The notes beneath the pieces are model-generated. The model saw only the letters and a program-made list of their open reading frames with translations, was not told where the DNA came from and searched no databases. DNA of 32,000 nucleotides, from contig CAYFOK010000007.1 in NCBI GenBank assembly GCA_964344685.1, forward strand, positions 79,771 to 111,770. The letters run 5' to 3'. Positions 1,929 through 18,420 of the stretch are shown here, one piece after another. Position numbers and translations under genes: made by a program. The DNA is from an uncultured Candidatus Scalindua sp. (lineage in GTDB: Bacteria > Planctomycetota > Brocadiia > Brocadiales > Scalinduaceae). Each line of letters begins with the position of its first letter. Within the stretch, counting starts at the first letter, position 1.

Positions 1929-2006
1929 CGGGGCGTGGCTCAGCTTGGCTAGAGTGCCTGCCTTGGGAGCAGGAGGTCGCTGGTTCGAATCCAGTCGCCC
2001 CGACCA
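1929..2006 (+). tRNA. tRNA-Pro (anticodon UGG), with encoded CCA
   Basis: Hand-folded cloverleaf. Acceptor CGGGGCG/CGCCCCG. D stem GCTC/GAGT. Anticodon stem CCTGC/GCAGG with loop CTTGGGA (anticodon TGG, G37). T stem GCTGG/CCAGT with loop TTCGAAT. Discriminator A followed by CCA. Confidence 0.95.
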
Positions 2007-2008
2007 TT
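1962..2008 (+). repeat. attL: 47-bp core repeat (3' half of tRNA-Pro from the anticodon loop through CCA plus TT)
   Basis: Identical 47/47 to 18374-18420 in direct orientation. Confidence 0.85.
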
Positions 2009-3074: not shown

Positions 3075-3129
3075 ATTTTTACCTCCTTTCCGAAGCCTGA
3101 CGGTGTCTGAATGACTGTTACCGGCAGAA

Positions 3130-3396
3130 TTATATATCATTTCTGATAGTATCTCCAATAATTTTATCAGATGCTTCTTCTACTTGATTTATATTGCGTT
3201 TCATGGAAGCCATTAGCGCATTTATATCATTAAGATCAAAGAGAACTCTTCGACCCAACTTTACTGAGGGTATTTTCCCCTGAGCTGCCCATTCATACAA
3301 CGTCTTTACCGAGAGAGAGGTGTACTCAGATACTTTTTTGATACCTACATATCTTTCTCTGTTAATCTCATTTTTATCATTTAATTTGTTTGCCAT
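3130..3396 (-). CDS. xis: excisionase-family helix-turn-helix DNA-binding protein
   Basis: 88 aa, directly upstream of int on the same strand. The segment VSEYTSLSVKTLYEWAAQGKIPSVKLGRRVLF is typical of excisionase/MerR-like HTH_17 proteins. Confidence 0.75.
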   Translation of the reverse strand: MANKLNDKNEINRERYVGIKKVSEYTSLSVKTLYEWAAQGKIPSVKLGRRVLFDLNDINALMASMKRNINQVEEASDKIIGDTIRNDI

Positions 3397-3975: not shown

Positions 3976-4422
3976 ATGAAGAAAATATATTTAGACGTTT
4001 GCACTTTATGCCGTCCATTTGATAATCAGTCTATGATGCGAATACGTCTTGAAACAGACGCATACTATTTAATATTAAAAAGCATTCAGGATAAAACTTT
4101 CGAAATTATTGTATCTCCAGTACACTTCAAGGAGGTTGAAGCTATAGAAGATATATATGAACGTATAGAATTAACCGTTTTGTTAAATAAATACGGTAAA
4201 AAACCAACATTCAAATTGAATGAAATTAAAAAAAGAACTGAATATTTAAATTCCTTAAATTTTGGAATTGCTGATGCTGCCCATTTAGCATTTGCTGAAA
4301 CATCGGCAGATTATTTTATTACCTGCGATGATAAATTGTTAAAGAAAATTAGCAAAATAAAAGATATTAATATACAAGCAATTAATCCTGTAAACTTTTG
4401 TACAAAGGAGAACTTGAGGTGA
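3976..4422 (+). CDS. PIN-domain protein (VapC-like toxin candidate)
   Basis: 148 aa with PIN-like acidic residues in context: IYLDVC, FKEVEAIED, IADAAHLAFAE, ITCDDKLL. Confidence 0.8.
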   Translation: MKKIYLDVCTLCRPFDNQSMMRIRLETDAYYLILKSIQDKTFEIIVSPVHFKEVEAIEDIYERIELTVLLNKYGKKPTFKLNEIKKRTEYLNSLNFGIADAAHLAFAETSADYFITCDDKLLKKISKIKDINIQAINPVNFCTKENLR

Positions 4423-4891: not shown

Positions 4892-4967
4892 TTACATCAG
4901 AATATTTTATAGAAAAAATTATTAATACTTCAAATAAATAACCAGAAATGTTTATAAAGAGGTAAAT

Positions 4968-5198
4968 ATGTCACGTTGTCATGTATACGGTTCAATAAAG
5001 GCAAAAGAAGAGTACACCAACGAAGTATTTCAGATCGATAACAAGCCTGTTTTAGTAGAACATATTCCAGCAATAGTCTGCGTCCGCTGTGGTGAAGAAA
5101 CATTTAGCCGTGAAACCACAGAACGGATTCGCCGCATGGTACACGGAGAAGCAAAACCTGTAAAATCTGTTTCAATGGAAGTATTCACTTTTATATAA
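4968..5198 (+). CDS. YgiT-type (MqsA N-terminal-like) zinc-finger protein
   Basis: 76 aa. VEHIPAIVCVRCGEETFS is the hallmark second zinc knuckle of YgiT-type fingers. The first knuckle is degenerate (RCHVYG). Confidence 0.55.
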   Translation: MSRCHVYGSIKAKEEYTNEVFQIDNKPVLVEHIPAIVCVRCGEETFSRETTERIRRMVHGEAKPVKSVSMEVFTFI

Positions 5199-5648
5199 AA
5201 ACCAAATAAAAAAGCATCTAACACCTATAAGCCCCCCACACACACACACACTTTTCAAGTAAGAAACCACCCCATATGATTAACAGATCAGAATAACATT
5301 ACATAAAAGATACTATAATCGAAATCACCAAGCATATGGGCAACATGACAATCGCAATATCGATAGTGACTCTAGCAAATATAATTGCTGTAATTATTCA
5401 GTTATACAAATAGAATTTAGCACACCAACATTATAAGGAACGAAAATGTGACCCCTTGCTTGTCACAAGAAAAAGAAGAAGTAGAGTTTTTTGGTTTTAG
5501 TTCTAACTGTATTGTTTTACTTAGGCTTAAGGCCAGAATGGGGAGTATGATTTACTCCCTGTTTTGGCCTGTTTTGATTTGCTTACTTGACAATTACTTG
5601 ACAGTAATAAAGTTTACATTAGACTGCTGAAGGATTAAGAAAAGTGAA

Positions 5649-5667
5649 GGTTGTTTCTTAAAATCAA
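5649..5667 (+). repeat. third, degenerate copy of the GGTTGTTTCTTA-N-ATCAA motif
   Basis: GGTTGTTTCTTAAAATCAA. The first 12 nt are identical to 17947-17958 and the orientation matches. Confidence 0.4.
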
Positions 5668-5866
5668 TGGGGGAAAAAGAGTATAAATTAAAGCTTCAGA
5701 TAATAAGAGGATTGGGGATCAGATAAAAATAGAATAATTATAGTTTTTATGACTATTTATTTGAGAAACACATTATCAAATCATTTTTAACTTTAATAAA
5801 AAAGGTGAGATGTGACCTCGTTCAGTTGTAATATAATTAAACTTAAAAGGTTACAGCTATTCTGCA

Positions 5867-6571
5867 TTACTCTCCATCAATTTGTTCGCTGCTATGAATC
5901 GTGTAATGCCGTTCAATGAATTTTATTGTGTTCGTGAATTTAACTTTGTCCTGTTTAGGTGCTTTTTGTTGCATCTCCTTTAACATTGGCAAAAGATAGC
6001 ATTTATGTCTATTACTTCCGTTTATAAATTGGTATGCATATACCTCTTCATCAAAAATAGAGAACTTCCTCATTGGTATATCCTGATTTATAAATCCATG
6101 GTTAAGAGGGCTGACATGCAATGAAATAAGTCGCTTTGAAGCTGACGGGGTTAAGACTAAACCAATCCAGTTTTGATCTTCGCAGTATTCGTATGCTTCA
6201 AGAAAGGCTTTGCCCATAATAATCTTACTGTTATGGCCTATAATTAAATTCCCATAAGAAACAGCGCCTCTTACTGGTAATCGCTTGAGAATGCAATTTC
6301 TAATAAAACCCTTTGATTTGTTAATGAACTCAGGGTATCCAGAATCATCTGGTGATGTTGCGTAAATAATAAATGTATCCGCATAGAATGTAAAGTTTAC
6401 TAAAGACTCAAAGTGAGTTGTTTGTTTCTGTAACTTTTTTAAAACTTCGTCAATAGAATCTTTAAGGATATCTAGGTACAATGAACGGTCTTCATTGTCA
6501 ATTTTATATTTGAATCCTATAACATCAAAGTGAGCAATCCAAGTGTTGTAACTTTTCCAATTATTATCCAT
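5867..6571 (-). CDS. nucleotidyl-cyclase-like palm-domain protein (class III cyclase / GGDEF / mCpol-like fold)
   Basis: 234 aa. Motifs are spaced as in class III cyclases: HFDVIGFK (F-x-D-x-x-G-F), FYADTFIIYA (second metal Asp), LPVRGAVSYGNLIIG (R-x-G-x-x-x-G), GKAFLEAYEYCE. Recognised by eye only. Confidence 0.5.
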   Translation of the reverse strand: MDNNWKSYNTWIAHFDVIGFKYKIDNEDRSLYLDILKDSIDEVLKKLQKQTTHFESLVNFTFYADTFIIYATSPDDSGYPEFINKSKGFIRNCILKRLPVRGAVSYGNLIIGHNSKIIMGKAFLEAYEYCEDQNWIGLVLTPSASKRLISLHVSPLNHGFINQDIPMRKFSIFDEEVYAYQFINGSNRHKCYLLPMLKEMQQKAPKQDKVKFTNTIKFIERHYTIHSSEQIDGE

Positions 6572-6642
6572 GTTATTCTTTCAGCTAATGCTGAAATCAC
6601 TTGCCAAAATGCACCAACTTTTTGGACAAGTGGATTGATTTA

Positions 6643-7239
6643 TTAGGAATTTTCTTTTCTTTCGATCTCTTCTTTGTACCATTTATCTATATGTTTTGCT
6701 CCCTCAAGAGACTTAACAGATGAGGCTGTCATTCCTAGTATTAAGGCAATCTTTTGATAATTTAATCCCTCTTTTCTAAGTTTTAAAATCAAGCACCTTC
6801 GACGATAGGGAACCTCAGCAGGAGCATCTAAGCTTGCACTTTTTTCTAGAGATTTGAGTCTCTGTTCTTCCGTTTGATGAAAAATAGGAGTTCTGAAAAA
6901 TTTTCCTTCAAAATAATCCCATCCTAGTAAGTGTGCGATTAGTTCTAATAGTTCAGCTATAACATGAGGTTCGCTATTTTCTTTAACGATTTTTTTTATG
7001 TCACTTTTTAGAATATCTAGGTCAGCCAAAATTGTAGCCTTCAATATTTCATCATTAGTTACAACCTGTATAATTCTTTTTTTTATTTTTCCTATAATCT
7101 TTAAACACTCATCTTTAAAATATTTTGGATTCTGATATGCCGATGCCATATCATGGGAGCATCTGTCTTTTCCATTATACTCCCAAGATGTGATTTCCAT
7201 CTGTAAGTTATAAGGGTAACATTTTTTCTTTTTATTCAT
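6643..7239 (-). CDS. hypothetical protein with a C-terminal sigma-70 region 4 / LuxR-like HTH
   Basis: 198 aa. The C-terminal RRRCLILKLRKEGLNYQKIALILGMTASSVKSL is HTH-like. Confidence 0.5.
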   Translation of the reverse strand: MNKKKKCYPYNLQMEITSWEYNGKDRCSHDMASAYQNPKYFKDECLKIIGKIKKRIIQVVTNDEILKATILADLDILKSDIKKIVKENSEPHVIAELLELIAHLLGWDYFEGKFFRTPIFHQTEEQRLKSLEKSASLDAPAEVPYRRRCLILKLRKEGLNYQKIALILGMTASSVKSLEGAKHIDKWYKEEIERKENS

Positions 7240-7583
7240 AACAAGTTATTCAATAATTCCCAGGTAACACCACTATGGCAACGATATTCAGAAGAATCAA
7301 ATTACTATACTTCTTTATAAGGAACAATTGCAGTCTGAAATATCAAAATAGCATTTATAGCAGATTATTTTTTTAGCCTGAGTTGCAATTCACGATTCTT
7401 TACAAATTCATCAAATTCATTCTTTTGTAGGCCAAGATTTTTGTTAATTTTTATCCATTTCTATCTCCTTTATCTTGCCTACACACTTCTTTTCTGTTTA
7501 CGGTCACACCCTTTGGAGCGCTAATACCTAGCTTGATCGTGTCTCTTCATTTCATTAACAAACATTTCTTGATCATCATTTTA

Positions 7584-7982
7584 TTAAGTCCACTTTAGAT
7601 AGTCAGGTAATTCAGGGGAACCAAACTTTTCATTATATTCATCTTGAAATACCTTCTGTTTATCGAGAGCATCGTCCAGTAACCGTTTCCAATTATCCAG
7701 ATCGGTGCCAAATTGCTGAAAGTCATCGTCTACAAAATGAGCGTACCTGATAGTGCCTATTTCTAACTTTGTTGGTTTCCCCTCGACAAGGTCTTCAAAG
7801 TATAGTTTATCTCGGGTCATAGTTTTTTGTACATCTGTCCAATAGTAATGCGGTAGGTCTGATACAAATGTAAACTTTAGATAGTGTTTCTTGAAAAAAG
7901 ACTTTGCAAACACAGCGTAGACGTGAATATATTTCTCTCCCTCTTTGAAAATATCAACAAAATCTAATTTGTGGAGCCTCAT
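7584..7982 (-). CDS. hypothetical protein
   Basis: 132-aa ORF with AAGGAGG upstream of the ATG. I recognise no family. Confidence 0.5.
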   Translation of the reverse strand: MRLHKLDFVDIFKEGEKYIHVYAVFAKSFFKKHYLKFTFVSDLPHYYWTDVQKTMTRDKLYFEDLVEGKPTKLEIGTIRYAHFVDDDFQQFGTDLDNWKRLLDDALDKQKVFQDEYNEKFGSPELPDYLKWT

Positions 7983-8361
7983 TCTTTCACCTCCTTTTGC
8001 TCTCTATATTAGTTTATAGTATCTGGAATACTGGTTGTCCTGTTTTCCTGTATACGATCACCATGGCTTCCAAGTATCATCACCCTCTTTGTATGGCGTG
8101 AACAGAAAATACAAACTTAATGCCAATAACAGCCCACCGATTTTATTGCTGAAGAATATCATGGTTAACAGGGATAAAAAAACATAAAACCAAGCAAATT
8201 ATTCTAAATATTTTTATGTCTTTTTTGTTAATTATCATTGTTTTTCAAATCACCCTGTATTTCTTTTTTTCTAATTTAAAGGATACATCTAAACACCACA
8301 TTTCAACAGAAAAGCAACAACAAAAATAGCAAGCCGCCTTTAATATAAAGAGATTTTTTCT

Positions 8362-8670
8362 TTAATAATTATTCTTTTTTGTCTGAACCCATCCATATAG
8401 AAATACAAGCACGGTAATGATATTTATTACTGCCCACGCTTCACGAAATAAATGAATTGGTTCTATGGGGTTGTAGACAATAGCGATTACTATGAAGGCC
8501 ACAGTAATAAAGCCACAACCCTTTTCTTTGTAATATTGATAAGCGATATATGCAGCACACCCACAGATTGCCCAGCGCATAAGCTGATAGTAATAGTACG
8601 GCAGCGAAAGCAGTGCGATAAGTAACAAGGCTATCGGCCCAATCCATAACAGTTTATTTGTTTTTGCCAT
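8362..8670 (-). CDS. small multi-pass membrane protein
   Basis: 102 aa with three or four hydrophobic segments. Confidence 0.6.
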   Translation of the reverse strand: MAKTNKLLWIGPIALLLIALLSLPYYYYQLMRWAICGCAAYIAYQYYKEKGCGFITVAFIVIAIVYNPIEPIHLFREAWAVINIITVLVFLYGWVQTKKNNY

Positions 8671-8938
8671 GCCTTAAAATTTAATAAATGCAAAGGATAA
8701 GAAAGATACGAGAGATCTGTGCTCTATAATGAGCCTTCAATATATTCACCTAGATCTACCATTCCTTGCATGAAGTTGACACAATTACGACATGCCATAT
8801 GAGTACCTTTACATAAGTCTTCATTAATGATTTATCAAATTTGTAAAGTATGAATTTGGTGAAGATATTGACAATCACCCATTACCACGACGAGACTCTC
8901 TACGGTAATCAAGTATCTCTCGAAAGATGTCATGTTTC

Positions 8939-9856
8939 TCAAAGCCTTAAGTCATGCGACTTCATCCTCCGCCCATATTTCATGTAAAGTATCTCTCGAA
9001 GGCTGTCACGTTTCTCCCAGTATTCTAACTCTAGATGCTCAATGCCCATCTTTTTGTAACATAATGCAATATGACGGTAGCATTCTAACTTGGAATAGCT
9101 TGCATAGCTTACAACCTCAGGCTTCAGCTCTATAGCCTTCTTAAAATTCTCTATCGCCTCCTCATATAGGCTAAGCCCCTTCTGTACGTAACCAAGAGAT
9201 TGGTAGTAGAATGAATCCTTTGGATTCAGCTCTATAGCCTTCTTATAATTTTCTATTGCATCCTCATATAGACTATCCATGTGTTGTGCGTTGGCAAGTT
9301 CATAGTAGTAGTCTGCAACCTTTGAATTCAGCTCTATAGCCTTTTCATAATTTTCGATTGCATCCTCATATAGACTAAGCTTATGCTGTGCACGACCAAG
9401 GTAATAGTAGTAATCAGCAACCTCTGGATTCAACTGTATGGCTTTCTTACAATTCTCTATTGCATCATTATTTAGGCTATCCCCAATTGAACTATCTTCG
9501 TATTGTGCACGGCCAAGGTGATAGTAGTAGTCTGCAACCTCTGGATTCAGCTCTATAGCCTTCTTACAATTCGATGTTGCATCCTCATATTCACACAGAG
9601 GATATTGTGCACGGCCAAGGTAATGGTAGTAGTCTGCAACATCTGGATTCAACTGTATGGCTTTCTCACAATTCTCTATTGCCTCGTCATACTCCCCTTT
9701 TATAATATGCTCTTTCCCTTTGAAGAAATAAAAATCAGCATCTCTGACTTGTTCTAAAGCAGTAAGCCCTCTAATGACAAGTTCTTTTCGTACTTTTGGG
9801 TCGTACCTTGTAATGGCAGTCGATCTTTTTACAATAGCCTTGTTCTTCTCGGTCAT
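8939..9856 (-). CDS. tetratricopeptide (TPR) repeat protein
   Basis: 305 aa with about seven AIE(N)xKKAIELNPxxADYYYxLGxAQ units. The start codon is 1 nt after the stop of the upstream J-domain gene. Confidence 0.9.
   Translation of the reverse strand: MTEKNKAIVKRSTAITRYDPKVRKELVIRGLTALEQVRDADFYFFKGKEHIIKGEYDEAIENCEKAIQLNPDVADYYHYLGRAQYPLCEYEDATSNCKKAIELNPEVADYYYHLGRAQYEDSSIGDSLNNDAIENCKKAIQLNPEVADYYYYLGRAQHKLSLYEDAIENYEKAIELNSKVADYYYELANAQHMDSLYEDAIENYKKAIELNPKDSFYYQSLGYVQKGLSLYEEAIENFKKAIELKPEVVSYASYSKLECYRHIALCYKKMGIEHLELEYWEKRDSLREILYMKYGRRMKSHDLRL
9121..9700 (-). repeat. intragenic tandem DNA repeats (about 96-117 bp period) encoding the TPR units
   Basis: GGATTCAGCTCTATAGCCTTCTTAnAATT-type blocks recur at about 9121, 9226, 9322, 9424, 9541 and 9644. 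Confidence 0.8.
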
Positions 9857-9857
9857 A

Positions 9858-10748
9858 TTAGTATTCTACCTCTTGGATTATTTCTTTATACTCCGCAACA
9901 AGTCCATCTAGTAATGTCTGATTATCGTCGATCTCTTCTTTTATATTGTCTGCAAGTTCCTGTAGTAAATCCCTGTCCTCTTTTTTCGCATCATCAACTT
10001 TCACTTTCAATTTATAGGTCTCGTCTTCTTTCAAATCATCAAGTTCCGCATACCGTTTTGCAATAATTCCAAGAATGGTGTCATAGTCTGCCTTCAATCT
10101 GGCAAGCGTCTCCACTGGGGTCTCTTTAGCTATTTTCTCTTCTCGTTCTGCTCGACTCATATATTCTCTTAGGGTTCTTTGATCCTTATTCCTGTATGCC
10201 TCATTTATCACAGCCATGATACTATGATATTTTTTTCTCCGCTTGTCGTCTCTTGCCTTGTCTGGATGGAATTTAATAGCAAGCCTTCGATATAGTCTTT
10301 TTAGTTCTTCTTTATCTTCCGTGTTAAGAGTTGGACCACTTTCTTCTTGCTCCAGATATTCTCTATATTCATCTGCTGCCTCGGACGCCTCGCCTCCAAG
10401 ATCATTAATCTTCTGCCTTTCTTCAGTAAAAGTCTGATTTACTTCATCTTCAATGCTATCTAAATCATGTTGAGAAGTTTTTTTACCCTGAGCAAGGTCA
10501 ATCCTAAGCTGATATTCTTTCACTTTTAATTTTATTTTGTCAAGTTTCACATAAAGCAAGCCAACCCTTGAATTATATTCACCCAAGAATACATTCAATG
10601 TAATATTTATGTTCTGGACTTGGATTAATAACTCAGACGCCTCATTCTCTTTTTCCGCTATACGAGCTTTCCAAATATTTAATTCCTTCTGGACATCACC
10701 TGTAGAAGGAACTAATTTATTACCCTTTGCTTTGTTATTTTCTGCCAT
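9858..10748 (-). CDS. J-domain (DnaJ-like) protein with flanking coiled coils
   Basis: 296 aa. The central LKRLYRRLAIKFHPDKARDD...AVINEAYR segment carries the HPD tripeptide. No Gly/Phe or zinc-finger regions of full DnaJ are present. Confidence 0.85.
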   Translation of the reverse strand: MAENNKAKGNKLVPSTGDVQKELNIWKARIAEKENEASELLIQVQNINITLNVFLGEYNSRVGLLYVKLDKIKLKVKEYQLRIDLAQGKKTSQHDLDSIEDEVNQTFTEERQKINDLGGEASEAADEYREYLEQEESGPTLNTEDKEELKRLYRRLAIKFHPDKARDDKRRKKYHSIMAVINEAYRNKDQRTLREYMSRAEREEKIAKETPVETLARLKADYDTILGIIAKRYAELDDLKEDETYKLKVKVDDAKKEDRDLLQELADNIKEEIDDNQTLLDGLVAEYKEIIQEVEY

Positions 10749-11039
10749 CGTGGAAACATTTTCCGATATTTTTCAACTTAAGATTATTTTACTTACACAT
10801 AAGTAATGTCAATCATTATACTTTGCAGGAAAGTTCATCTATTTGAATCCTTAAAAGAATAAACTTAATTTATAAAAGCATATCCTACCATCTAATGGTT
10901 GATTAATTTGTAGAGTGAAGTTGCTAGCGGTATAGTAGTGAGGATAGATATCAAAATCAAGATTAAAAACAAGGACTTACGACACATTTGATTAATTTGC
11001 AAGTATTTAATAAATAAAAACTTACAAAATAGAATGTTA

Positions 11040-11058
11040 GTTGTTTCTTGGTATCAAG
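11040..11058 (+). repeat. GTTGTTTCTTGGTATCAAG: downstream copy of the ori-like 19-mer
   Basis: 18/19 identical to 17948-17966 in the same orientation. On the minus strand it reads CTTGATACCAAGAAACAAC. Confidence 0.5.
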
Positions 11059-11152
11059 GTAAAGAAAGCATGGTTACTTCACCTTTTTTATTAAATTAAA
11101 AAGATTTGGTAACATACTTCTAAAAAAAAATTTAGAAACCATAGTTTTAAAA

Positions 11153-12061
11153 CTACAATTTCTCAATTTTTATTTCATCATTAATCTTTTTTTTATCAGT
11201 AACAGAAATCTTCACTTTTTTTAATCCTTTCTTGGTCTTCACAACATAATGACCGTCAATTATACCAATGATTTTATACATGTTATTATCCTCAACCTCT
11301 AATTCTTCAGGTTCAAGTTGTGGTTCCTGAACATCATCAATAACAGTCGCAGGAGTACGAATGTTATGCTTATTCATATTATGAAAGATGTTCATAAAAC
11401 CAAATCGAAAAATCAATCCAGCACATACAACCAAACCAACAAATATTAAAATATGCTTGAACGGAATACTTTTAATCTTTTCACCTTCACCTATTATCAT
11501 TGAACAGTACATTCCAAAGACTTTTTGATCTTGTTTTATTCTTTTTGTCTTGAAGCATTCATCTCCTGAGTAGAATTTATAGGTAAAACTTTTACCAATC
11601 GAGTTAGAACGCCTTACCGCTTTTATTTCATACTCTGCCAGCTCTCTCAACTCTTTAGCAAGGCAACGAGTATCCTGGGTTATTAAATAGATATCACACC
11701 CCAAATGGCGATGCATTTGAAAGAAAAGAAAAACATTAACATCATAAAATTTTCTATGAAAATAGTTACCACTCTGCGCTTCGTCAATAATATAAATAAC
11801 ATTAGAGTTCATGCAAAAAGTCTCTTGGTATTTATTATTGAAAAATGTAGAGAGCCCACCAGCATCAGCAATGAACTTATCAAGATCATCTCCAAGTTTC
11901 ATATTCTTGATATTTGTATATACTCTTACATCAACATCTCTTGCCTTAGGAACCCATTTGTCTAATTCATCAGACCAAGTATAATAAGATTTTAATACGT
12001 GATTAACAGCATAGTACGTTTTACCGGAACCAATTTTACCTTGAATTAATCGTATGGCCAT
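11153..12061 (-). CDS. Zot / pI-type filamentous-phage assembly ATPase
   Basis: 302 aa. N-terminal P-loop IQGKIGSGKTYYAV, Walker B VIYIIDEAQ, a central TM helix (ILIFVGLVVCAGLIFRFGF) and a short C-terminal domain give the standard Zot architecture. Confidence 0.85.
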   Translation of the reverse strand: MAIRLIQGKIGSGKTYYAVNHVLKSYYTWSDELDKWVPKARDVDVRVYTNIKNMKLGDDLDKFIADAGGLSTFFNNKYQETFCMNSNVIYIIDEAQSGNYFHRKFYDVNVFLFFQMHRHLGCDIYLITQDTRCLAKELRELAEYEIKAVRRSNSIGKSFTYKFYSGDECFKTKRIKQDQKVFGMYCSMIIGEGEKIKSIPFKHILIFVGLVVCAGLIFRFGFMNIFHNMNKHNIRTPATVIDDVQEPQLEPEELEVEDNNMYKIIGIIDGHYVVKTKKGLKKVKISVTDKKKINDEIKIEKL

Positions 12062-12062
12062 T

Positions 12063-13453
12063 TTATGTTTTCCTCACAAATTTAAGTCTCTGATTTTCAA
12101 AGTCCTTCTCATTAAAGAGAATTTCGACAGAGAGAAGCAAGATTAACTCTGTTTTAGTTTTGTTGATATCCTCTGACCTGAACATTTTTCCAAGATATGG
12201 AATATCACCAAGAAGCGGTATTTTCTGATTTTTTTGTTAGAAGAATTTTCCATTAAACCACCTACATAAATTTTCTGCCCATCATTAATCAATGTAGTCA
12301 TTTCAAGTGAGTTTTTAGTAAACGATGGTGAGTCAATCAAAGGGTTTTGAACGGTTTGAACAATGTCACTGATCTCTTGACTAAGATATAATTTAACAAC
12401 ATTGTTTTCTTCAACGTCAACCTTGACGTTTAGTAAAACGCCAACGTCTCGATATTCGATATTTTCAGATCGTAAACCATTTGCAGATACAGAAGTACCT
12501 TTTCGGATAGGTTCTTCACGTCCAATTTTAATAACGGAGGTCTGACCGTCCTGGACTAATACATGTGGCTTTGAAAGAATCTCTACTTTACTTTCAGAAT
12601 TTAAAATGGTGATGAAAGTGTTTACATCTCTATGAAAAGTAAAAGCTTTGAGCCCTTTACCAGCAAGACCAGTAGTCAAAGACGTTATTCCCTCTGTTAA
12701 TAGAGATATTTGACCGCCTCTATTATTTTTCGTCCTAAAGAAGTACTCGACACCATATTGAAGAGCATCGTTTAAAGTGACTTCCATAATTGTGAATTCT
12801 ACAAGTACCTGTTTTGGCCGTTTGTCAAAGGTTTTAATAACCTCCTTAACCTTATTATAATCGTCTTTACCGGCTTTTATGATAAGTACGTTAATGCTTT
12901 TGTTTTCAGTAATAGCAATTTCCGGGAAGACATCATTCAGTAAAGATTTTAGATTTCCAGAGCTTTCATATTGCAAACGATACAGATAAACATTTTTTGT
13001 GTCATCCGGTGAAGTTTGTATATTAAGATCATTCAGGTTTTCGTTATTATGAATTCCATATAACGCACCGTTTTTTATTAGTTGATAGTTTTTACTATTT
13101 AAAACGGTACGAACCATTTTCAGAATTTCATCTCTTTTAAATTTACCTTTTATTTCGATATCAACATTACCGATCAAATCATCAACGATAATGTAATTCT
13201 CTTTGATGATTCCCATCAAAAGACTAACAACATCTTTGAGTTCAACTTTCTCAAATTGCATATCAACGTCAATACCACCTCTTTTAAGTTCGGGCTTTAC
13301 CTTGCCCTCTTTTACTTTCCATTGCCAGTTTTCGACATTTTTTGTTTTAGCCGTATTGGTAAAAAGTTTTTTCTCTGGTTTCTTTTTTATGAGCGCACAA
13401 CCCGGAGCACAAAAACATATTACAAATACTAAGACACAGATTTTTCTCAGCAT
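12063..13453 (-). CDS. pIV/GspD-type secretin, interrupted by a frameshift at an A7 tract (12229-12235)
   Basis: The secretin core is readable (VLVEFTIMEVTLNDALQYGVEYF). The annotated frame ends at 12143 in nonsense sequence. The -1 frame after the A7 run reads NQKIPLLGDIPYLGKMFRSEDINKTKTELILLLSVEIL, the canonical secretin C-terminus, and stops at 12063-12065, 1 nt before the Zot ATG. The likely start is the ATG at 13453 (AAGGAG upstream), giving the signal MLRKICVLVFVICFCAPGC. Confidence 0.85.
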
Positions 13454-13559
13454 TTTTACAGTCTCCTTTTCAATAAGGAAATTTCTGCCAGTTAAAAAAT
13501 TCACGCCAAAGGTTAAGTTTTTTTGTCATGCTTTTTAAACTTCTGGAAACGTGTTGATT

Positions 13560-13805
13560 TTAATAACAATATAAAAAACCCAAAACAAAAAGGAGTTGTG
13601 ATTTTTGTTTTGGGTTTTTTACTAAAAGATCGGGGACGTACCGGTAACTTTTTTGATGAGAGTTATAACAAACCCAACCACTCAATAAATCCTTTTTAAG
13701 TAGTTCAATACAATAAGAGAGGCTTACAACTTTTTTAAGTCTGTTATATTCATCTTTTTTACTTAGTTTGTAAGTATTAGTATTAACCTTCTTCTTAGTA
13801 ATCAT
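13560..13805 (-). CDS. hypothetical basic protein
   Basis: 81 aa with an ATGA overlap onto the upstream ORF. Its last ~20 codons are a read-through of a perfect hairpin, so the 3' end is doubtful. Confidence 0.35.
   Translation of the reverse strand: MITKKKVNTNTYKLSKKDEYNRLKKVVSLSYCIELLKKDLLSGWVCYNSHQKSYRYVPDLLVKNPKQKSQLLFVLGFLYCY
13573..13620 (-). terminator. perfect 19-bp stem / 10-nt loop hairpin flanked by A/T runs
   Basis: AAAAAACCCAAAACAAAAA ggagttgtga TTTTTGTTTTGGGTTTTTT. It looks like an intrinsic terminator on either strand. Confidence 0.5.
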
Positions 13806-14026
13806 CCCAATCCTTCATTTTTGTTCCATTCATTCATTTCCATTTCTACACATTGTTCTGCTGTTAAAGTTTTTCCACTATCCAAATACATTTCCCAACC
13901 AACTAGACCATATTCCCTATAACTTAGACCGGTAGAATCAGAAAAATCACCTTCACGCAAACCACATTTATTTCTCAAATGCATTATATATCTATCAATA
14001 AATTCTTCTTTTTCTATATCTACCAT
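13802..14026 (-). CDS. hypothetical soluble protein (phage module)
   Basis: 74 aa. The start is 1 nt after the stop of the pVI-like gene. No family recognised. Confidence 0.5.
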   Translation of the reverse strand: MVDIEKEEFIDRYIMHLRNKCGLREGDFSDSTGLSYREYGLVGWEMYLDSGKTLTAEQCVEMEMNEWNKNEGLG

Positions 14027-14027
14027 T

Positions 14028-14363
14028 TTACAACCTCACAAAAGGTATCATCCGTATAGCCATTCTGAAAGCTACAGCAGACATAATAAGTGAAAACCCT
14101 TCAACAACTTTCAGGTGTATCGCGAACCACGCCGTAATGCCTGTAAAGTTGATTAAATAGCTATTGACGCCGTAAGTACCGTCAATGGTATTTAACGTGC
14201 TCATGACTCCCTCAATGAGCATATAGATCATTCTGCTAAACAAGACCGGAACAATGGTAATTACCAGCGTCCAGATGAATAACTTCATAGCGGTGAAACG
14301 TACAACACTATAACCAACCCAACTACCAAAGGCCGAAAGTAACCAGCTTAATAATGCAGGCAT
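14028..14363 (-). CDS. pVI-like minor coat / membrane protein
   Basis: 111 aa, multi-pass and hydrophobic. It starts MPALLSWLL, compared with M13 g6p (112 aa) starting MPVLLG, and sits directly after the pIII-like gene as in Ff phages. Confidence 0.55.
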   Translation of the reverse strand: MPALLSWLLSAFGSWVGYSVVRFTAMKLFIWTLVITIVPVLFSRMIYMLIEGVMSTLNTIDGTYGVNSYLINFTGITAWFAIHLKVVEGFSLIMSAVAFRMAIRMIPFVRL

Positions 14364-14386
14364 TTTTTAGACTCCCTTGAATTTAA

Positions 14387-15604
14387 TTACACTCCCATTG
14401 CTATAAAAACAGCTCTAATAGCCATTAATCCCAATACAAAACTACCAAACAGATCAACCATCCAATCTAATGAACAAAAATCAATAGTCATGGATTTCCC
14501 AAAGAGTGTCATTGGAAGTGAACAGGTTGCACCGGTTACATTGATCTGGCTATCCGTGGCCAGAAGTACCAAAGGATTGGATGCAAGATATCCGGTAATT
14601 AAACCAGTCCAGTCCGTTTCTCCAACCTCAGAAACATCTCCCGGAAGGCTTGCGTCATAGGTTGAACTGTCCGCAGTACCTACAGAACCAGAAACAGTAC
14701 CAACAGGAATAGACCCGGTATCGTCAAGACCTGATATATCATCTATACCGTCCTGGTTAGCATCAGTAAAATTTCCTGGAGGTTGTGAAACAGGAGTTCC
14801 AGTACCACACACACCACCATAATCAATCCCAGTTTCGTCCTGATTCATAATACCGTCAAAGCAGGTTTCCGCAGGAGGACACACAAGACCAAAATTAAGC
14901 TCACACACTCCACCACAATCAACACCTGTTTCGTCTTGATTCTGGATACCATCGAAACAATCAGGCAGTTGTGGAACATCTTCTTCAAACTCATAAAAAT
15001 CAACAGCTAAATCCAAAATAGGACCTTGATCTGTTGCACCTATAGTGCCTGAATAAACATTCCCCATTCCTCCCGGAACCGGATCATTAAGAAAAGGGTC
15101 ACCGATATTAGTATCCTGAAGAAATGTATCAGTTGCACTAATTACTCCTTTCCATTTAACATCACCATTTTCATTCATATATATCCAGAAACCAACATTT
15201 GAACCGGTAATAGCATTTGCTAATGCCTGTGACATACTCGTATTAGTCAACGTTGTCCACTGTGTAGTATTTGACCAGATTGAATCCATCCCCGGTAATA
15301 CAGGATAAAACTTTTTACCATCATTTTGATTTGTATATACAATTGAATCGGTACTTGAACCAAGAAAGGTATCAATAAAATCAACCTGACCTGTTGAAGT
15401 GTTAACATTACTAATTTGTCTTAGAGCAATGTCTCCATTGTCTTTTGTAAAATACATAATTGCACCAACTGTTAACGCAGCAGCAACATTAATACCTACC
15501 CAGAGAGCAAGAGGTACGACTGCATCTGCCTTTCTGGTCTGGACATAGAAAGAAGAAAAGAGAAATGTGATAGTTAAAACAAAAACTATTAAATATTTTT
15601 TCAT
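14387..15604 (-). CDS. pIII-like adsorption / minor coat protein
   Basis: 405 aa. It has an N-terminal signal and a central duplicated Cys-rich module. The C-terminal GKSMTIDFCSLDWMVDLFGSFVLGLMAIRAVFIAMGV resembles the M13 g3p membrane-anchor region in pattern (GK..IDC...LF.G.F..L). Confidence 0.6.
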   Translation of the reverse strand: MKKYLIVFVLTITFLFSSFYVQTRKADAVVPLALWVGINVAAALTVGAIMYFTKDNGDIALRQISNVNTSTGQVDFIDTFLGSSTDSIVYTNQNDGKKFYPVLPGMDSIWSNTTQWTTLTNTSMSQALANAITGSNVGFWIYMNENGDVKWKGVISATDTFLQDTNIGDPFLNDPVPGGMGNVYSGTIGATDQGPILDLAVDFYEFEEDVPQLPDCFDGIQNQDETGVDCGGVCELNFGLVCPPAETCFDGIMNQDETGIDYGGVCGTGTPVSQPPGNFTDANQDGIDDISGLDDTGSIPVGTVSGSVGTADSSTYDASLPGDVSEVGETDWTGLITGYLASNPLVLLATDSQINVTGATCSLPMTLFGKSMTIDFCSLDWMVDLFGSFVLGLMAIRAVFIAMGV

Positions 15605-15612
15605 AATTACCT

Positions 15613-15735
15613 TTAACTATATGTAATTGTATGAATAACTTTTTTAACTACCCAAATAACCGCCAATAATCCCACGATAGTGGAAGCAAATATAAAAATC
15701 TTTGATGTGTCTATACTTATCATTGAATAATCCAT
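15613..15735 (-). CDS. 40-aa major-coat-like protein, paralog 1
   Basis: MDYSMISIDTSKIFIFASTIVGLLAVIWVVKKVIHTITYS: acidic N-terminus, one TM helix, basic C-terminus (a Pf3-type coat layout with no signal peptide). This is the internal ATG of track ORF 15613-15798. Confidence 0.55.
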   Translation of the reverse strand: MDYSMISIDTSKIFIFASTIVGLLAVIWVVKKVIHTITYS

Positions 15736-15812
15736 AGTTTTTTCCTGATAGAAGAATTTATAAAAATGTTGGCCAGCCTCTAGAAAGCCAACCAACACCC
15801 GGCAAGGAATCG

Positions 15813-15935
15813 TTAAGAACGATTAGCTAGTTTGATAACCTTTTTTACTGCCCATATGCCAGCAATAGCGGTAACTATTACACCTGCCAGAACAAGCACC
15901 TGAGTAGTATCAATGGCCAATGTACTGAAATCCAA
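15813..15935 (-). CDS. 40-aa major-coat-like protein, paralog 2 (not in the ORF track)
   Basis: My translation: (M)DFSTLAIDTTQVLVLAGVIVTAIAGIWAVKKVIKLANRS. TTG start with AAAGGGGGTG upstream. 18/40 identical, ungapped, to paralog 1. Confidence 0.5.
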   Translation of the reverse strand: MDFSTLAIDTTQVLVLAGVIVTAIAGIWAVKKVIKLANRS

Positions 15936-15964
15936 GACTATCACCCCCTTTCCTGTTATAAAGG

Positions 15965-16270
15965 TTAAACTGCGTATTTAACACACACGTAAGCCAGCAG
16001 AGAACCACAGACCACACCCGCCAGACCCATAAGGAAATTCTCTGACCATACACCCTGCAGGGATACGGAAGAGAGGAAAACATGTATTGAATTTACAGGA
16101 GCATCAATTGTCATATTGCCAGAGCACAGGAAATTCAGAGGGGTCATACCGGAAGACATTAATACATCGCCATTCACGCCATTGGAAGTGATATTGATCA
16201 GACCGTTATAATTATTAGAAGAGATAACCACGTCCGACATATCACCACAATCATAGTTAGTAATAGCCAA
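15965..16270 (-). CDS. hypothetical protein with a C-terminal TM anchor
   Basis: 101 aa. TTG start with AAGGAG 8 nt upstream. C-terminal LMGLAGVVCGSLLAYVCV. Confidence 0.45.
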   Translation of the reverse strand: MAITNYDCGDMSDVVISSNNYNGLINITSNGVNGDVLMSSGMTPLNFLCSGNMTIDAPVNSIHVFLSSVSLQGVWSENFLMGLAGVVCGSLLAYVCVKYAV

Positions 16271-16274
16271 GTTT

Positions 16275-16439
16275 TTAACTCCTTGTCATAATATTAAAAA
16301 GCCATCCAACCATCATGGAGAGAACACCAAAAGACAACACCAGAGTAAAAAAATAATCGAACATAACATTTCCGGTTATATTTACCGGAAGAATGTCCCA
16401 CACTCCACCCCAATCACCAAAAGCACCTATAACAAGCAT
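16275..16439 (-). CDS. 54-aa hydrophobic protein (not in the ORF track)
   Basis: My translation: MLVIGAFGDWGGVWDILPVNITGNVMFDYFFTLVLSFGVLSMMVGWLFNIMTRS. GGAAAGGTGTGGATT lies immediately before the ATG. It is nearly identical to the initiation region of the gene at 16774. Confidence 0.4.
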   Translation of the reverse strand: MLVIGAFGDWGGVWDILPVNITGNVMFDYFFTLVLSFGVLSMMVGWLFNIMTRS

Positions 16440-16528
16440 AATCCACACCTTTCCAATTTTAAGTTTAAGAGGGAGGCCAGGAGAATAGCTCCATGTACTA
16501 CGGAGCTAACCTCCCCCTTAAAAACAAA

Positions 16529-16774
16529 CTATTTTTGTTTACCGTTTTCTAAAGTAACACGCTTAACATCCATACGAATTTCATTCCCTGACGGAAAGAA
16601 CTTGTTGAAATCAACCTTGACAGGGTCTCCCATGTTTAGAAGCTGTTCACCTTTAACTTTCTCCACAGGAAGAAATACTCTAAACGTGTCTCCAAGATCT
16701 TTACACATCACTTTAAAACCTACTCCCTTATCAGAAGCATTTACTAAACTAGCAACCATTCCATCAACTACCAT
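16529..16774 (-). CDS. candidate ssDNA-binding protein (gV position and size)
   Basis: 81 aa from the internal ATG at 16774, preceded by GAAAGGTGGTGGATT. It is small and beta-rich-looking and lies immediately after Rep. The call rests on position and size only. Confidence 0.4.
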   Translation of the reverse strand: MVVDGMVASLVNASDKGVGFKVMCKDLGDTFRVFLPVEKVKGEQLLNMGDPVKVDFNKFFPSGNEIRMDVKRVTLENGKQK

Positions 16775-16796
16775 AATCCACCACCTTTCAAAAAAA

Positions 16797-17858
16797 TTAA
16801 ACATTATTAAAAAAATAATCAGAACCGGAATATTCATCTTCATTTTCCGGTTCTGATTCCTCTACATCGCTACCTTTAAAAAGCTTATGCCCGGCAAAAT
16901 CAATTTCTATAAGTCCAATCTTAACTGCTTCGATTACATATGAGGCCAACTCTGAGTTAATTCCGGTTTCCTTAAAGGTTTTATAGACAACGCCTTTAAG
17001 TGTTCCAAATGTCACATACTCTTTTTCTTCTTCCTGGGTAAGTTCCTCCATGTCTTCACCGCCTATGTCAGCCATGTCTTTCAGGCCGTAACAATTACCA
17101 AACTTTGAAACCATCCTTTTCCCTTTCATGTCAATAATGATTTCTTTTAATCGATCATCATTAATATCAAGACCAAACTTCATTGCATATTTTGAGATTT
17201 CCTTACCATACCCTTCTGTAACCGGCCTGATATCTGAAATCTGACCAAGACCAACTTTCAGAAGAACGTGCTCAAGGTCTTTCTTTATTGGGTCTAAGAA
17301 TGTTCCTTGTTCAGTATTCCGCATATTCACAACATGTCTATCAACGGTTAGATCGACTAACATATGAGAGTGTATATGCCATCCGGTTCCTTCTTTGTAT
17401 GTCACTTCAATATGTTCAACACCTCCACGTATATACTTTTTCCACCATGAACGCTCTTTTTTAAGCAGACTTGTTGATTTTTTGTAACATTCCAAAGCAG
17501 TCTTCAAACTATCCCTGTTTAATTCGTTTGCAGTAATGGTTAAGAGATGAGGGTTTTGCATATCTTTACCAAGTTTTTCCACCCTGCGAGACAGTATTGA
17601 CGCACGGTATGAATTGCACACCGGGCAAACTCTATCTTTACAGCGAACTTGCGGTTCAAAAAGCACACTTGATATATCTCCTTTCTTCGCTTTAACAAAA
17701 ATTGTATTCCCGCATATACCCATTCGTTTTGCTCTCGATTCCTGATCAACTTCACGAATAAGTTTTTCAATACGGAATAAAGTTTTTAACCTCCAACTAT
17801 TCTTAACGGTCACAACAGACTCTAACTTTTTCTTCTTCTTAACGGCACATTCACACAT
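16797..17858 (-). CDS. HUH rolling-circle replication initiator (pC194/pUB110 Rep_1-like)
   Basis: 353 aa. CKDRVCPVCNSYRAS (zinc-ribbon-like N-terminal motif), GWHIHSHMLVD (HUH motif) and GKEISKYAMKFG (catalytic Tyr motif) occur in the expected order. GGAGGT lies upstream of the ATG. Confidence 0.8.
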   Translation of the reverse strand: MCECAVKKKKKLESVVTVKNSWRLKTLFRIEKLIREVDQESRAKRMGICGNTIFVKAKKGDISSVLFEPQVRCKDRVCPVCNSYRASILSRRVEKLGKDMQNPHLLTITANELNRDSLKTALECYKKSTSLLKKERSWWKKYIRGGVEHIEVTYKEGTGWHIHSHMLVDLTVDRHVVNMRNTEQGTFLDPIKKDLEHVLLKVGLGQISDIRPVTEGYGKEISKYAMKFGLDINDDRLKEIIIDMKGKRMVSKFGNCYGLKDMADIGGEDMEELTQEEEKEYVTFGTLKGVVYKTFKETGINSELASYVIEAVKIGLIEIDFAGHKLFKGSDVEESEPENEDEYSGSDYFFNNV

Positions 17859-17947
17859 AAATTACCTCCAAAAAAATCATTAAAAACGGCTGAAAATTGC
17901 CACATTGTAAGTTTCAATTTTTCAATGCCTTAAAAAATCGTGTTCCG

Positions 17948-17966
17948 GTTGTTTCTTAGTATCAAG
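17948..17966 (+). repeat. GTTGTTTCTTAGTATCAAG: upstream copy of the ori-like 19-mer, candidate Rep nick site
   Basis: On the minus strand it reads CTTGATACTAAGAAACAAC, about 90 nt upstream of the Rep ATG. CTTGATA is the nick-site core of pC194/pUB110/phiX174-type origins. Confidence 0.45.
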
Positions 17967-18009
17967 TCTATAGCTTCTTTCTCACAAATGAGCCAAATTG
18001 AGGCCAAAA

Positions 18010-18059
18010 AAAAACCAGTGTTTGCGCGCGCTTGGTGAGCGTGCTCAACACTGGTTTTT
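18010..18059. other. large hairpin: 13-bp stem (AAAAACCAGTGTT / AACACTGGTTTTT) with a GC-rich 24-nt loop
   Basis: Read directly. The loop TGCGCGCGCTTGGTGAGCGTGCTC can itself pair (GAGC/GCTC). It lies in the non-coding region upstream of Rep. It could be a minus-strand origin or packaging signal. Confidence 0.5.
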
Positions 18060-18134
18060 GTAGTTGATAAATTAATTTTTTTTACTATTATATTGTTGTT
18101 ATTCTTTTTCATTGGTGAATGGGAATAATAACTA

Positions 18135-18171
18135 GGAGGGCATAAGTTGCCGCTTATGTCTTCCTTTTTTT
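18135..18171 (+). terminator. terminator-like hairpin plus T7 run
   Basis: GGAGGGCATAAG ttgccg CTTATGTCTTCC (10/12 paired) followed by TTTTTTT. Confidence 0.4.
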
Positions 18172-18206
18172 AATAATAAAACTAAAAATAACTTTGAAAA
18201 AATAAA

Positions 18207-18231
18207 ACCCACTGTCGCCAAATTGTCGCCA
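18207..18231 (+). promoter_or_regulatory. candidate integrase arm-type binding site, copy 2
   Basis: Exact 25-bp copy of 2049-2073, located 142 bp inside attR. Confidence 0.5.
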
Positions 18232-18373
18232 ACTCCAGTTAAATTGACAGTAATCAGCGTGAAATGACAGAAAACAGTTGAGAGTCTTAAGCCATTATGT
18301 TATAAGTGGTAACAGTCGTAACAGACACTTTGTCAGGCAGTTATAAAATTAACAATAAATGGTTCTACCCTCT

Positions 18374-18420
18374 CTTGGGAGCAGGAGGTCGCTGGTTCGA
18401 ATCCAGTCGCCCCGACCATT
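18374..18420 (+). repeat. attR: 47-bp partial tRNA-Pro copy
   Basis: Identical to 1962-2008. The upstream sequence does not continue the tRNA 5' half. Confidence 0.85.

Follow-up and report, generated by a model that had tools for sequence, protein, structure and literature searches.

Small plasmids of Gram-positive bacteria, such as pC194 and pUB110, encode a rolling-circle initiator of the Rep_1 family (PF01446), with HUH and Glu/Tyr motifs, and carry the heptamer CTTGATA upstream of rep on the rep-sense strand. This heptamer is the nick site of the Rep_1 double-strand origin (dso) (PMC10378824), and the pC194 dso reads TCTTTCTTATCTTG and, on the other side of the nick, ATAATA (PMC5037232). 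PF01446 is also among the replication-protein models used for Microviridae and Inoviridae (PMC7000223). Integrase-type inoviruses found at tRNA genes combine Zot/pI, pIV, coat-like genes, and a rolling-circle replication protein with a tRNA-adjacent tyrosine integrase, attachment (att) repeats, and variable cargo after the morphogenesis module (Roux et al. 2019, PMC6813254). In the filamentous phage CTXphi of Vibrio cholerae, whose tandem CTXphi/RS1 arrays give excision-independent rolling-circle production between two Ig-1 origins, production needs such an origin both upstream and downstream (PMC8265649), and integration proceeds via host Xer recombinases (PMC3442271). Here, we compare these systems with an inovirus prophage in a 32,000-nt stretch of DNA (the window, whose positions serve for all coordinates below) from an uncultured Candidatus Scalindua sp. 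(GTDB lineage Planctomycetota; Brocadiia; Brocadiales; Scalinduaceae; GCA_964344685.1, contig CAYFOK010000007.1, 79,771-111,770, forward strand). The rep-to-zot core of this prophage lies between two nearly identical 19-mers, termed copy A (upstream of rep) and copy B (beyond zot), which an earlier note on the same DNA had read as two possible origins bracketing the phage. Our analysis suggests that copy A is very probably the nick-site core of the phage plus-strand origin, and that copy B is a truncated extra origin, found only at this locus and most likely left as a recombination scar.

Two direct 19-mers flank the phage core

On the plus strand, copy B reads GTTGTTTCTTGGTATCAAG (11040-11058) and copy A reads GTTGTTTCTTAGTATCAAG (17948-17966). 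The two agree at 18 of 19 positions. All intervening genes have the minus strand as their sense strand, and on it the 19-mers read CTTGATAC(C/T)AAGAAACAAC. A direct check of the sequence bore out the coordinates, shared orientation, and identity given in the earlier note, together with its distances of ~90 and ~95 nt: 89 nt lie between the end of copy A and the rep ATG (17858), and copy B starts 94 nt beyond the zot stop (11153). The gene content that it had described between the repeats, i.e., a Rep_1 (PF01446) initiator, a pIV-type secretin, and Zot/pI, was also recovered.

A pair of matches of this kind was seen in none of 100 dinucleotide-preserving shuffles (0.04 expected). The similarity between the two copies exceeds 19 nt on the rep-proximal side only, with 29 of 38 positions shared within the window and ~53-65 nt of similarity against the origins of related elements. 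The bare heptamer CTTGATA is frequent, with 17 copies on both strands of the window versus 6.4±2.4 expected, a count reached by none of 100 shuffles; therefore, only the extended motif can carry specificity. Further sense-strand copies in the core lie within zot (11878-11884) and rep (17165-17171). The chance copy in zot that the earlier note had singled out (11906-11912) is indeed present, but it is far from the sole extra one. The excess of CTTGATA extends outside the prophage too.

Copy A very probably marks the replication origin of a prophage family

We retrieved ~30 related loci for comparison (88 loci in all, labeled L001 onward), and the region upstream of rep is covered in L002-8, L051, L055, L063, L071-81, and L086-89. 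Rep homologues proved plentiful (56-93% identical), and a precomputed PF01446 match is present in all but two of 97. Among reference genomes, all but one of the Rep relatives come from Candidatus Scalindua/Brocadiaceae assemblies, i.e., from anammox Planctomycetota. In every relative in which the upstream region is available, some 20 Scalindua elements with Rep proteins 56-92% identical, the motif is found ~90-108 nt before the rep start, including elements without any cargo. The first 14 nt of copy A, CTTGATACT(A/T)AGAA, are practically invariant in 16 intact unique rep-proximal sites, whose consensus is cTAtaGA followed by CTTGATACT(A/T)AGAA, with GA before CTTG in all of them; the origin of L075 (ATTTATAC...) is clearly decayed and has lost CTTG. 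In addition, an origin profile hidden Markov model (HMM; nhmmer, 150 positions), which was built from the relatives alone with the window excluded, recognized copy A with E=2e-30.

The Rep protein itself fits such a site. Two motifs, WHxHSH (W160-H161-x-H163-S-H165) and GYGKEIxKY (E220-I-x-K-Y224), are invariant in 13 aligned members and represent the HUH metal-binding motif and the Glu/Tyr pair (E-x-x-x-Y), respectively. The same spacing is known from pC194 RepA, in which Glu210 lies four residues before the catalytic Tyr214. A search of the Rep profile against PDB chains gave no sequence-level match. Given the fixed position and conservation of the motif, the published Rep_1 heptamer, and the Rep_1/HUH motifs in Rep, we regard copy A as very probably the nick-site core of the plus-strand origin, which supports the earlier note on this point. 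The likeness to pC194 is confined to the heptamer on the DNA side: the extension conserved in the Scalindua family lies 3' of the nick (ATACTAAGAA), whereas the quoted conserved part of the pC194 dso lies 5' of it (TCTTTCTTAT), and the hosts are Gram-positive bacteria with small plasmids in one case and a planctomycete with an integrative inovirus in the other.

On the 5' side of the nick motif, the shared core continues with a conserved noncoding block that holds a GC-rich hairpin followed by a T9 run. This hairpin is the dominant fold of the region (z=-2.8) and, when the relatives are read sequence by sequence, it is found in all of them, with differing stem sequences and retained complementarity; RNAalifold missed it, as the divergent stems misalign. 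It could serve as an insulating terminator, a minus-strand origin, or a packaging signal. Approximately 130 nt 5' of the nick motif, ATTCACCAATGAAAAAGAATAA (18096-18117, minus strand) is invariant in six aligned origin regions within AT-rich, variable surroundings.

We postulate that the Rep_1 initiator would cut the sense strand at copy A, by analogy between CTTG and ATA, and that rolling-circle copying would run towards rep and on to zot. The polarity of copy A fits displacement of the sense strand from copy A towards copy B. In the family as a whole, copying of the entire excised circle would end back at its single origin.

Copy B is a truncated extra origin

Copy B was matched by the relatives-only profile with E=8e-5 at model positions 41-93 of 150 (11058 to 11006), which corresponds to 53 nt towards the expected rep side. 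According to both the profile and pairwise alignments, copy B lacks the hairpin along with the whole 5' half of the origin. Alignments of the copy B fragment to the origins of L081, L079, L071, and L005 beat all shuffled-flank controls, with a score of 50 versus 33.4±1.1 for L081, for example, and the similarity reaches ~+65. The alignments to family origins start at CTTG, with the exception of the divergent, T-rich L063. Three family-invariant positions are changed in copy B (AC for GA 5' of CTTG, and C for T at position 9), and its 5' flank (CTTTAC) shares nothing with that of the family. Over a longer stretch (11059-11078, CTTTCTTTACCTTGATA), this flank is similar to the pC194 origin in its conserved 5' part (CTTTCTTATCTTGATA, PMC5037232), which is not true of the family origins; this resemblance may be a coincidence in T/C-rich DNA.

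The arrangement is also peculiar to this locus. Among the ~15 relatives that cover zot and DNA beyond it (L050, L051, L052, L055-58, L060, L061, L063, L067, L089, L090/91), none has a second copy after zot, either with up to 4 mismatches allowed or by the origin profile HMM. In the five closest cores, sequence diverges directly after the zot stop (closest cores L050, L051, L052, L067, L089, and L090; Zot 82-90%). Copy B is held in an orphan junction segment between core and cargo, the interior of which (10864-11147) gave no blastn matches but partial ones to family origins, and no rep remnant was detected after copy B with 97 Rep homologues as queries.

Two other sources of copy B were considered and rejected. 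It is not the origin of the inovirus behind the inverted zot remnant described below, since the sense strand of that phage is the opposite one, nor that of a simple tandem neighbor as in S. japonica, since it comes without the hairpin and without the 5' half of the origin.

Module borders place the 19-mers within a 16.4-kb prophage

Core homology runs from 11148 to 18171-18208. It thus covers copy A and ~240 nt beyond, and stops ~90 nt short of copy B. Within this range, homology to L051 (Rep 92%) spans 11148 to 18171, with 87% identity where it passes through copy A, and homology to L089, L076, L079, L081, and L055 continues to 18198-18208, where an arm-type repeat begins. On the other side, core homology to L051, L052, L067, L050, L049, L089, and L090 ends at 11141-11153, and homology of the cargo to L082/L083 ends at 10863. 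Therefore, the 19-mers are not module borders.

The tRNA-Pro att repeats, the integrase, the excisionase-like gene, and the arm-type repeats identify the mobile unit as a 16.4-kb integrase-type prophage, of which the rep-to-zot core is the right-hand 7 kb. The 52-nt tRNA-Pro repeats, the integrase, and the excisionase-like gene had been overlooked in the frame of the earlier note. Three relatives (L060, L063, and L067) have the same layout, with rep to zot, cargo, and xis plus int, and one origin. With an integrase, an excisionase, and att sites of its own, the element does not need an excision-independent release.

Alternative explanations for the 19-mer pair

The earlier note proposed that Rep nicks copy A, terminates at copy B, and thereby frees a 6.9-kb sense-strand circle. 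This could happen directly from the chromosome without excision, or by splitting the excised 16.4-kb circle into a phage part and a cargo/integration part. Such a release is mechanistically possible, as the sense strand carries the motifs as direct repeats whose order suits strand displacement, copy B keeps the nick heptamer and 18 of 19 positions along with ~45 nt of additional origin-like 3' flank, tandem complete origins occur naturally in the family (S. japonica, L089), and precedents exist in CTXphi (PMC8265649) and in pC194, where circles are released between an initiation signal and a short termination signal (PMC7072734). Nevertheless, it is unsupported and not conserved, and we consider it rather unlikely. 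The earlier note held that a lack of the flanking repeat in homologous elements would refute the idea, and the ~15 relatives above indeed lack it. Copy B itself has neither the GA before CTTG nor the T at position 9 that are invariant in the family. The regenerated origin of the circle would carry its nonconsensus 5' flank, and the circle would drop the hairpin and the 240-nt noncoding block which all relatives retain on the far side of copy A. An efficient stop at copy B would also block replication of the int/att/cargo half, and the excision system makes this route superfluous. The predicted hybrid junction of the two copies (~11055 to ~17962; ...CTTTACCTTG joined to ATACTAAGAAAC..., also given as ...GCTTTCTTTACCTTG joined to ATACTAAGAAACAACCGG...) was absent as a 22-mer from IMG/VR and from the 88 retrieved loci, and independent same-project contigs identical to the window (L069 and L070) pass straight through both 19-mers. 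Both exact 19-mer types are absent from IMG/VR; 40 matches to a 16-mer in that database were dismissed as chance, none of them encoding a Rep relative. No terminal overlaps indicative of circular contigs were found among the retrieved loci, and the Rep contigs of 6-8 kb (L086-L088) are reduced integrated elements or an incomplete core. Lastly, the secretin gene of the prophage is frameshifted.

The remaining alternatives fare worse. If the 19-mer were an operator, bound by a regulator or by an autorepressing Rep, its two copies would control rep and the cargo operon; copy A does keep a fixed position, close upstream of the region where the rep promoter is likely to lie, and a weakly similar promoter-like sequence is found 3' of copy B. 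However, the strongest candidate promoter of the J-domain operon (10812-10783) is located inside the cargo module, ~230 nt from copy B, this module occurs elsewhere without copy B, the second site is present in no relative, and the motif holds the exact Rep_1 nick heptamer (PMC10378824), all of which makes regulation an improbable explanation. The other option raised by the earlier note was that a 6.9-kb inovirus had entered an older island, with the 19-mers as a duplicated target or recombination site. Its premise holds insofar as the cargo block is a separate module that occurs elsewhere without this core, and sequence diverges directly after zot in all relatives. The module borders contradict its conclusion: copy A is embedded well within the conserved core, which in at least six relatives runs ~240 nt past it (to 18171-18208), the left border (~11148) is 90 nt before copy B, and the motif belongs to the Rep module even in cargo-free elements. 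The 19-mers are therefore not insertion junctions, and we regard this as very improbable. A chance repeat in intergenic DNA, which the AT-rich window and its 17 bare heptamers might suggest, is refuted by the shuffles, by the detection of copy B with a profile that excluded the window, and by a flank similarity above all shuffled controls, and it is left with practically no probability.

On balance, we lean towards the explanation that copy A is the family origin nick site and that copy B is the truncated, rep-proximal half of the origin of another family member, at the recombination joint of core and cargo. Cut off at the nick motif, this half origin would have been stranded in the 285-nt junction, beside cargo that carries the relic of yet another inovirus. 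It most likely derives from a past recombination at a replication origin, through Rep-mediated joining at the nick or through a tandem array and subsequent deletion. A breakpoint at the nick motif is what would be expected if Rep joined its bound 5' end to a foreign 3' end. Michel and Ehrlich reportedly described in 1986 illegitimate recombination at the rolling-circle origins of M13 and pC194. The present joint is alike in that one end is the nick motif, with origin-derived sequence on the 3' side and unrelated sequence on the 5' side; it differs in that neither donor nor target was recovered, so the event would have to be deduced. Rather than an origin designed as a second one, copy B would be a probably functionless copy that the life cycle of the element does not need.

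Several observations weigh against this explanation. No donor sequence for the junction segment was found, and the route by which copy B arose is speculative. In addition, copy B has kept both its heptamer and its entire 19-mer intact, unlike the decayed origin of L075, which implies that copy B is recent or under some constraint. Short fragments of the pC194 origin (36 bp) are enough to stop rolling-circle replication and set circles free (PMC7072734, citing Gros 1989), so a truncated origin such as copy B could still act as a stop. We consider it doubtful that copy B is a working termination signal with which Rep frees the 6.9-kb rep-to-zot core from the chromosome or the excised circle. If it were, the prophage would be split into a self-replicating phage part and a nonreplicating cargo/integrase part, and a natural counterpart of CTXphi-RS1 within a single prophage would have arisen, via capture of a half origin, in an anammox bacterium's integrase-type inovirus. 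Copy B would then be a natural example of origin capture reshaping prophage packaging, which the present evidence does not favor.

Comparison with CTXphi and other mobile elements

The locus resembles CTXphi/RS1 in that direct origin-type repeats flank a filamentous prophage core on the sense strand. However, the downstream site of CTXphi is a complete Ig-1 (167 bp) that belongs to a complete adjacent element, whereas the one described here is truncated and changed at three invariant positions. The CTXphi initiator RstA belongs to Pfam Rep_trans, unlike the Rep_1 protein of the Scalindua element. Furthermore, the latter has its own integrase, excisionase-like protein, and att repeats, whereas CTXphi relies on host Xer and, to our knowledge, cannot excise. 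Since the downstream copy is incomplete, the arrangement does not recur among the Scalindua relatives, and the element has its own excision route, it falls outside the CTXphi-type two-origin class.

The sole natural two-origin array that we found is in L089 (S. japonica, BAOS01000027.1), in which two complete, direct origin regions (865-1024 and 4246-4392; motifs at 916 and 4284) lie 3.4 kb apart in the order origin-Rep-Xis-Int, origin-Rep...Zot, with defense-type cargo after zot (DUF2326, type I restriction-modification). This pair brackets a Rep-Xis-Int element upstream of the phage rather than the phage, and the array could release that small element by rolling-circle copying. IS91-type transposition (PMC5714925) offers another comparison, but the cores of the relatives are not bounded by ori/ter-type ends, share sequence past copy A, and are associated with integrases and att sites.

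All the features listed in the integrase-type inoviruses at tRNA genes (PMC6813254) were found here. The differences are the anammox planctomycete host and the mosaic state of this copy, with its extra truncated origin, zot remnant, and frameshifted pIV. The element thus combines known kinds of components: an integrase-type inovirus prophage at a tRNA gene, a Rep_1 initiator, and a heptamer of the pC194 type. The core had no match among 50,697 deposited phage genomes in distant-mode blastn, and a full-text literature search pairing Scalindua with inovirus returned no paper; as far as that search goes, this kind of phage is new to the host group.

Core genes, cargo, and decay of the prophage

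The features of the locus are compiled in Table 1. Inovirus membership is indicated by Zot/pI, a morphogenesis module, and Rep in one co-directional block that is syntenic in more than 10 relatives.

Table 1. Features of the Scalindua prophage and its surroundings (window positions)
Feature	Position	Strand	Description
tRNA-Pro(TGG) gene	1929-2006		Rfam match
attL	1957-2008	+	3' half of tRNA-Pro; 52-nt direct repeat
Tyrosine integrase	2013-3158	-	381 aa; PF00589, E=3e-35
Arm-type repeat	2049-2073	+	ACCCACTGTCGCCAAATTGTCGCCA, two TGTCGCCA units, 25 nt; inside prophage beside attL
Excisionase-like gene (HTH_17)	3130-3396	-	88 aa; PF12728, E=1.5e-11
Inverted remnant of second zot 3' end plus trailer	5590-5808	+	Aligns to minus strand 11270-11075
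Cargo block	5867-10748	-	234 aa, HTH (helix-turn-helix)/sigma-like 198 aa, 132 aa, DUF6804, TPR, J-domain protein
Orphan junction segment	10864-11147		285 nt between core and cargo, holds copy B; homology of both borders ends
Origin-like fragment	10994-11058	-	Nick motif plus ~45 nt of origin-to-rep leader; homology begins at C of CTTG
Copy B	11040-11058	-	CTTGATACCAAGAAACAAC; best-conserved part of truncated origin copy, 94 nt past zot stop
zot / pI-type assembly ATPase	11153-12061	-	302 aa, last conserved core gene; PF05707, phrog_197
pIV-type secretin gene	12063-13504	-	Frameshifted near 3' end; PF00263, phrog_1012
pVI-like minor virion protein	14028-14363	-	111-aa membrane protein; phrog_974, E=4e-9; 52-94% identical in relatives
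405-aa protein	14387-15604	-	Signal/transmembrane start, duplicated Cys-rich motif, C-terminal transmembrane segment
Two short open reading frames	15613-15944	-	43 and 61 aa; hydrophobic helix, basic C-terminus; no family match
Small conserved gene after rep	16529-16843	-	104 aa; tblastn matches of 43-89% in relatives, directly after rep
rep, Rep_1-family HUH rolling-circle initiator	16797-17858	-	353 aa; PF01446, 49 bits (cut-off 33.2), residues 72-277
Copy A	17948-17966	-	CTTGATACTAAGAAACAAC; presumed plus-strand origin (dso) nick-site motif of phage Rep
Conserved noncoding block	17967-18208	-	5' of nick motif; within shared core, left out of A-to-B circle
GC-rich hairpin, then T9 run	18006-18059	-	Conserved; 40-65 nt 5' of nick motif; terminator-like
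Arm-type repeat	18207-18231	+	Identical to the first; inside prophage beside attR; right end of core homology
attR	18369-18420	+	50/52 repeat of tRNA-Pro 3' half; bounds 16.4-kb prophage

The set of essential genes expected of an active phage is not intact, as the secretin gene is frameshifted by a one-base deletion (A4 instead of A5 at ~12221-12224). The conserved C-terminus (IPLLGDIPYLGKMFRS...TELILLL) is thereby displaced to a separate overlapping open reading frame (12063-12185); in five relatives, the secretin is one continuous open reading frame of 483-496 aa. The same frameshift is present in an independent assembly (L069). Judged from the gene sequence, virion export may be impossible for this prophage unless it is taken over by a secretin of the host. 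At the edge of the conserved block upstream of the secretin, a perfect inverted repeat of 20 bp around a loop of 10 nt (13572-13621) is a candidate terminator or packaging hairpin within the core.

Several other products of the core can be given tentative roles. Homologues of the 405-aa protein occupy the same position in relatives, and its N-terminal half is far more variable than its C-terminal half, as expected for a receptor-binding domain; it is probably a pIII-like adsorption protein. Its duplicated Cys-rich motif (CFDGIxNQDETGxDxGGVC, 14800-15010) is duplicated in L001 as well. The 43- and 61-aa open reading frames are coat-protein-like candidates by their predicted properties. [quoted passage not shown]

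The cargo block is 83-90% identical at the nucleotide level in L082/L083 (another Brocadiales contig), where the phage core is missing. In L090/L091, it stands convergent to another, intact core, which is the layout of the zot remnant and cargo in the window and implies that the cargo came together with the relic of another inovirus. The zot remnant is ~73% identical to the end of the resident zot and shares 82-85% identity with the ends of zot in L052 and L082. Collectively, the locus is mosaic and decaying.

Two further stretches recur in other loci. An ~85-nt element (7307-7392), which could be a small dispersed repeat or RNA, is found at 80-86% identity twice each in L057 and L063 and once each in L081 and L082; it has no Rfam match, the tRNA being the sole match in the Rfam scan. 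The stretch 4953-5206 is 85-94% identical to DNA of L051 (14513-14767) and L002-L004, and in the latter it overlaps a 55-aa gene 1.4 kb past the integrase. It represents a small gene or repeat that is conserved and tied to mobile elements.

Significance for Scalindua and its mobile elements

Reduced elements are present in many Scalindua contigs (L002-L008, L071, L073, L086, and L088; e.g., L005 9894-13391). They consist of the origin motif, Rep, in some cases the small post-rep gene, Xis, and Int, without morphogenesis genes, and some keep a remnant of the secretin N-terminus. Identical Rep proteins occur on dozens of contigs from different samples. These elements could be decayed prophages or satellite-like integrative replicons that rely on full phages.

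Our analysis illustrates that a short repeat with the look of a designed two-origin system can be a scar from a single recombination event, a question that comparison with relatives decides. Little is known of mobile elements in the Scalindua group. The comparison presented here defines the likely replication origin, made up of the motif CTTGATACTAAGAA, a conserved 5' hairpin, and a Rep_1-type initiator, of a filamentous prophage family that had not been described before and is common among marine anammox Scalindua.

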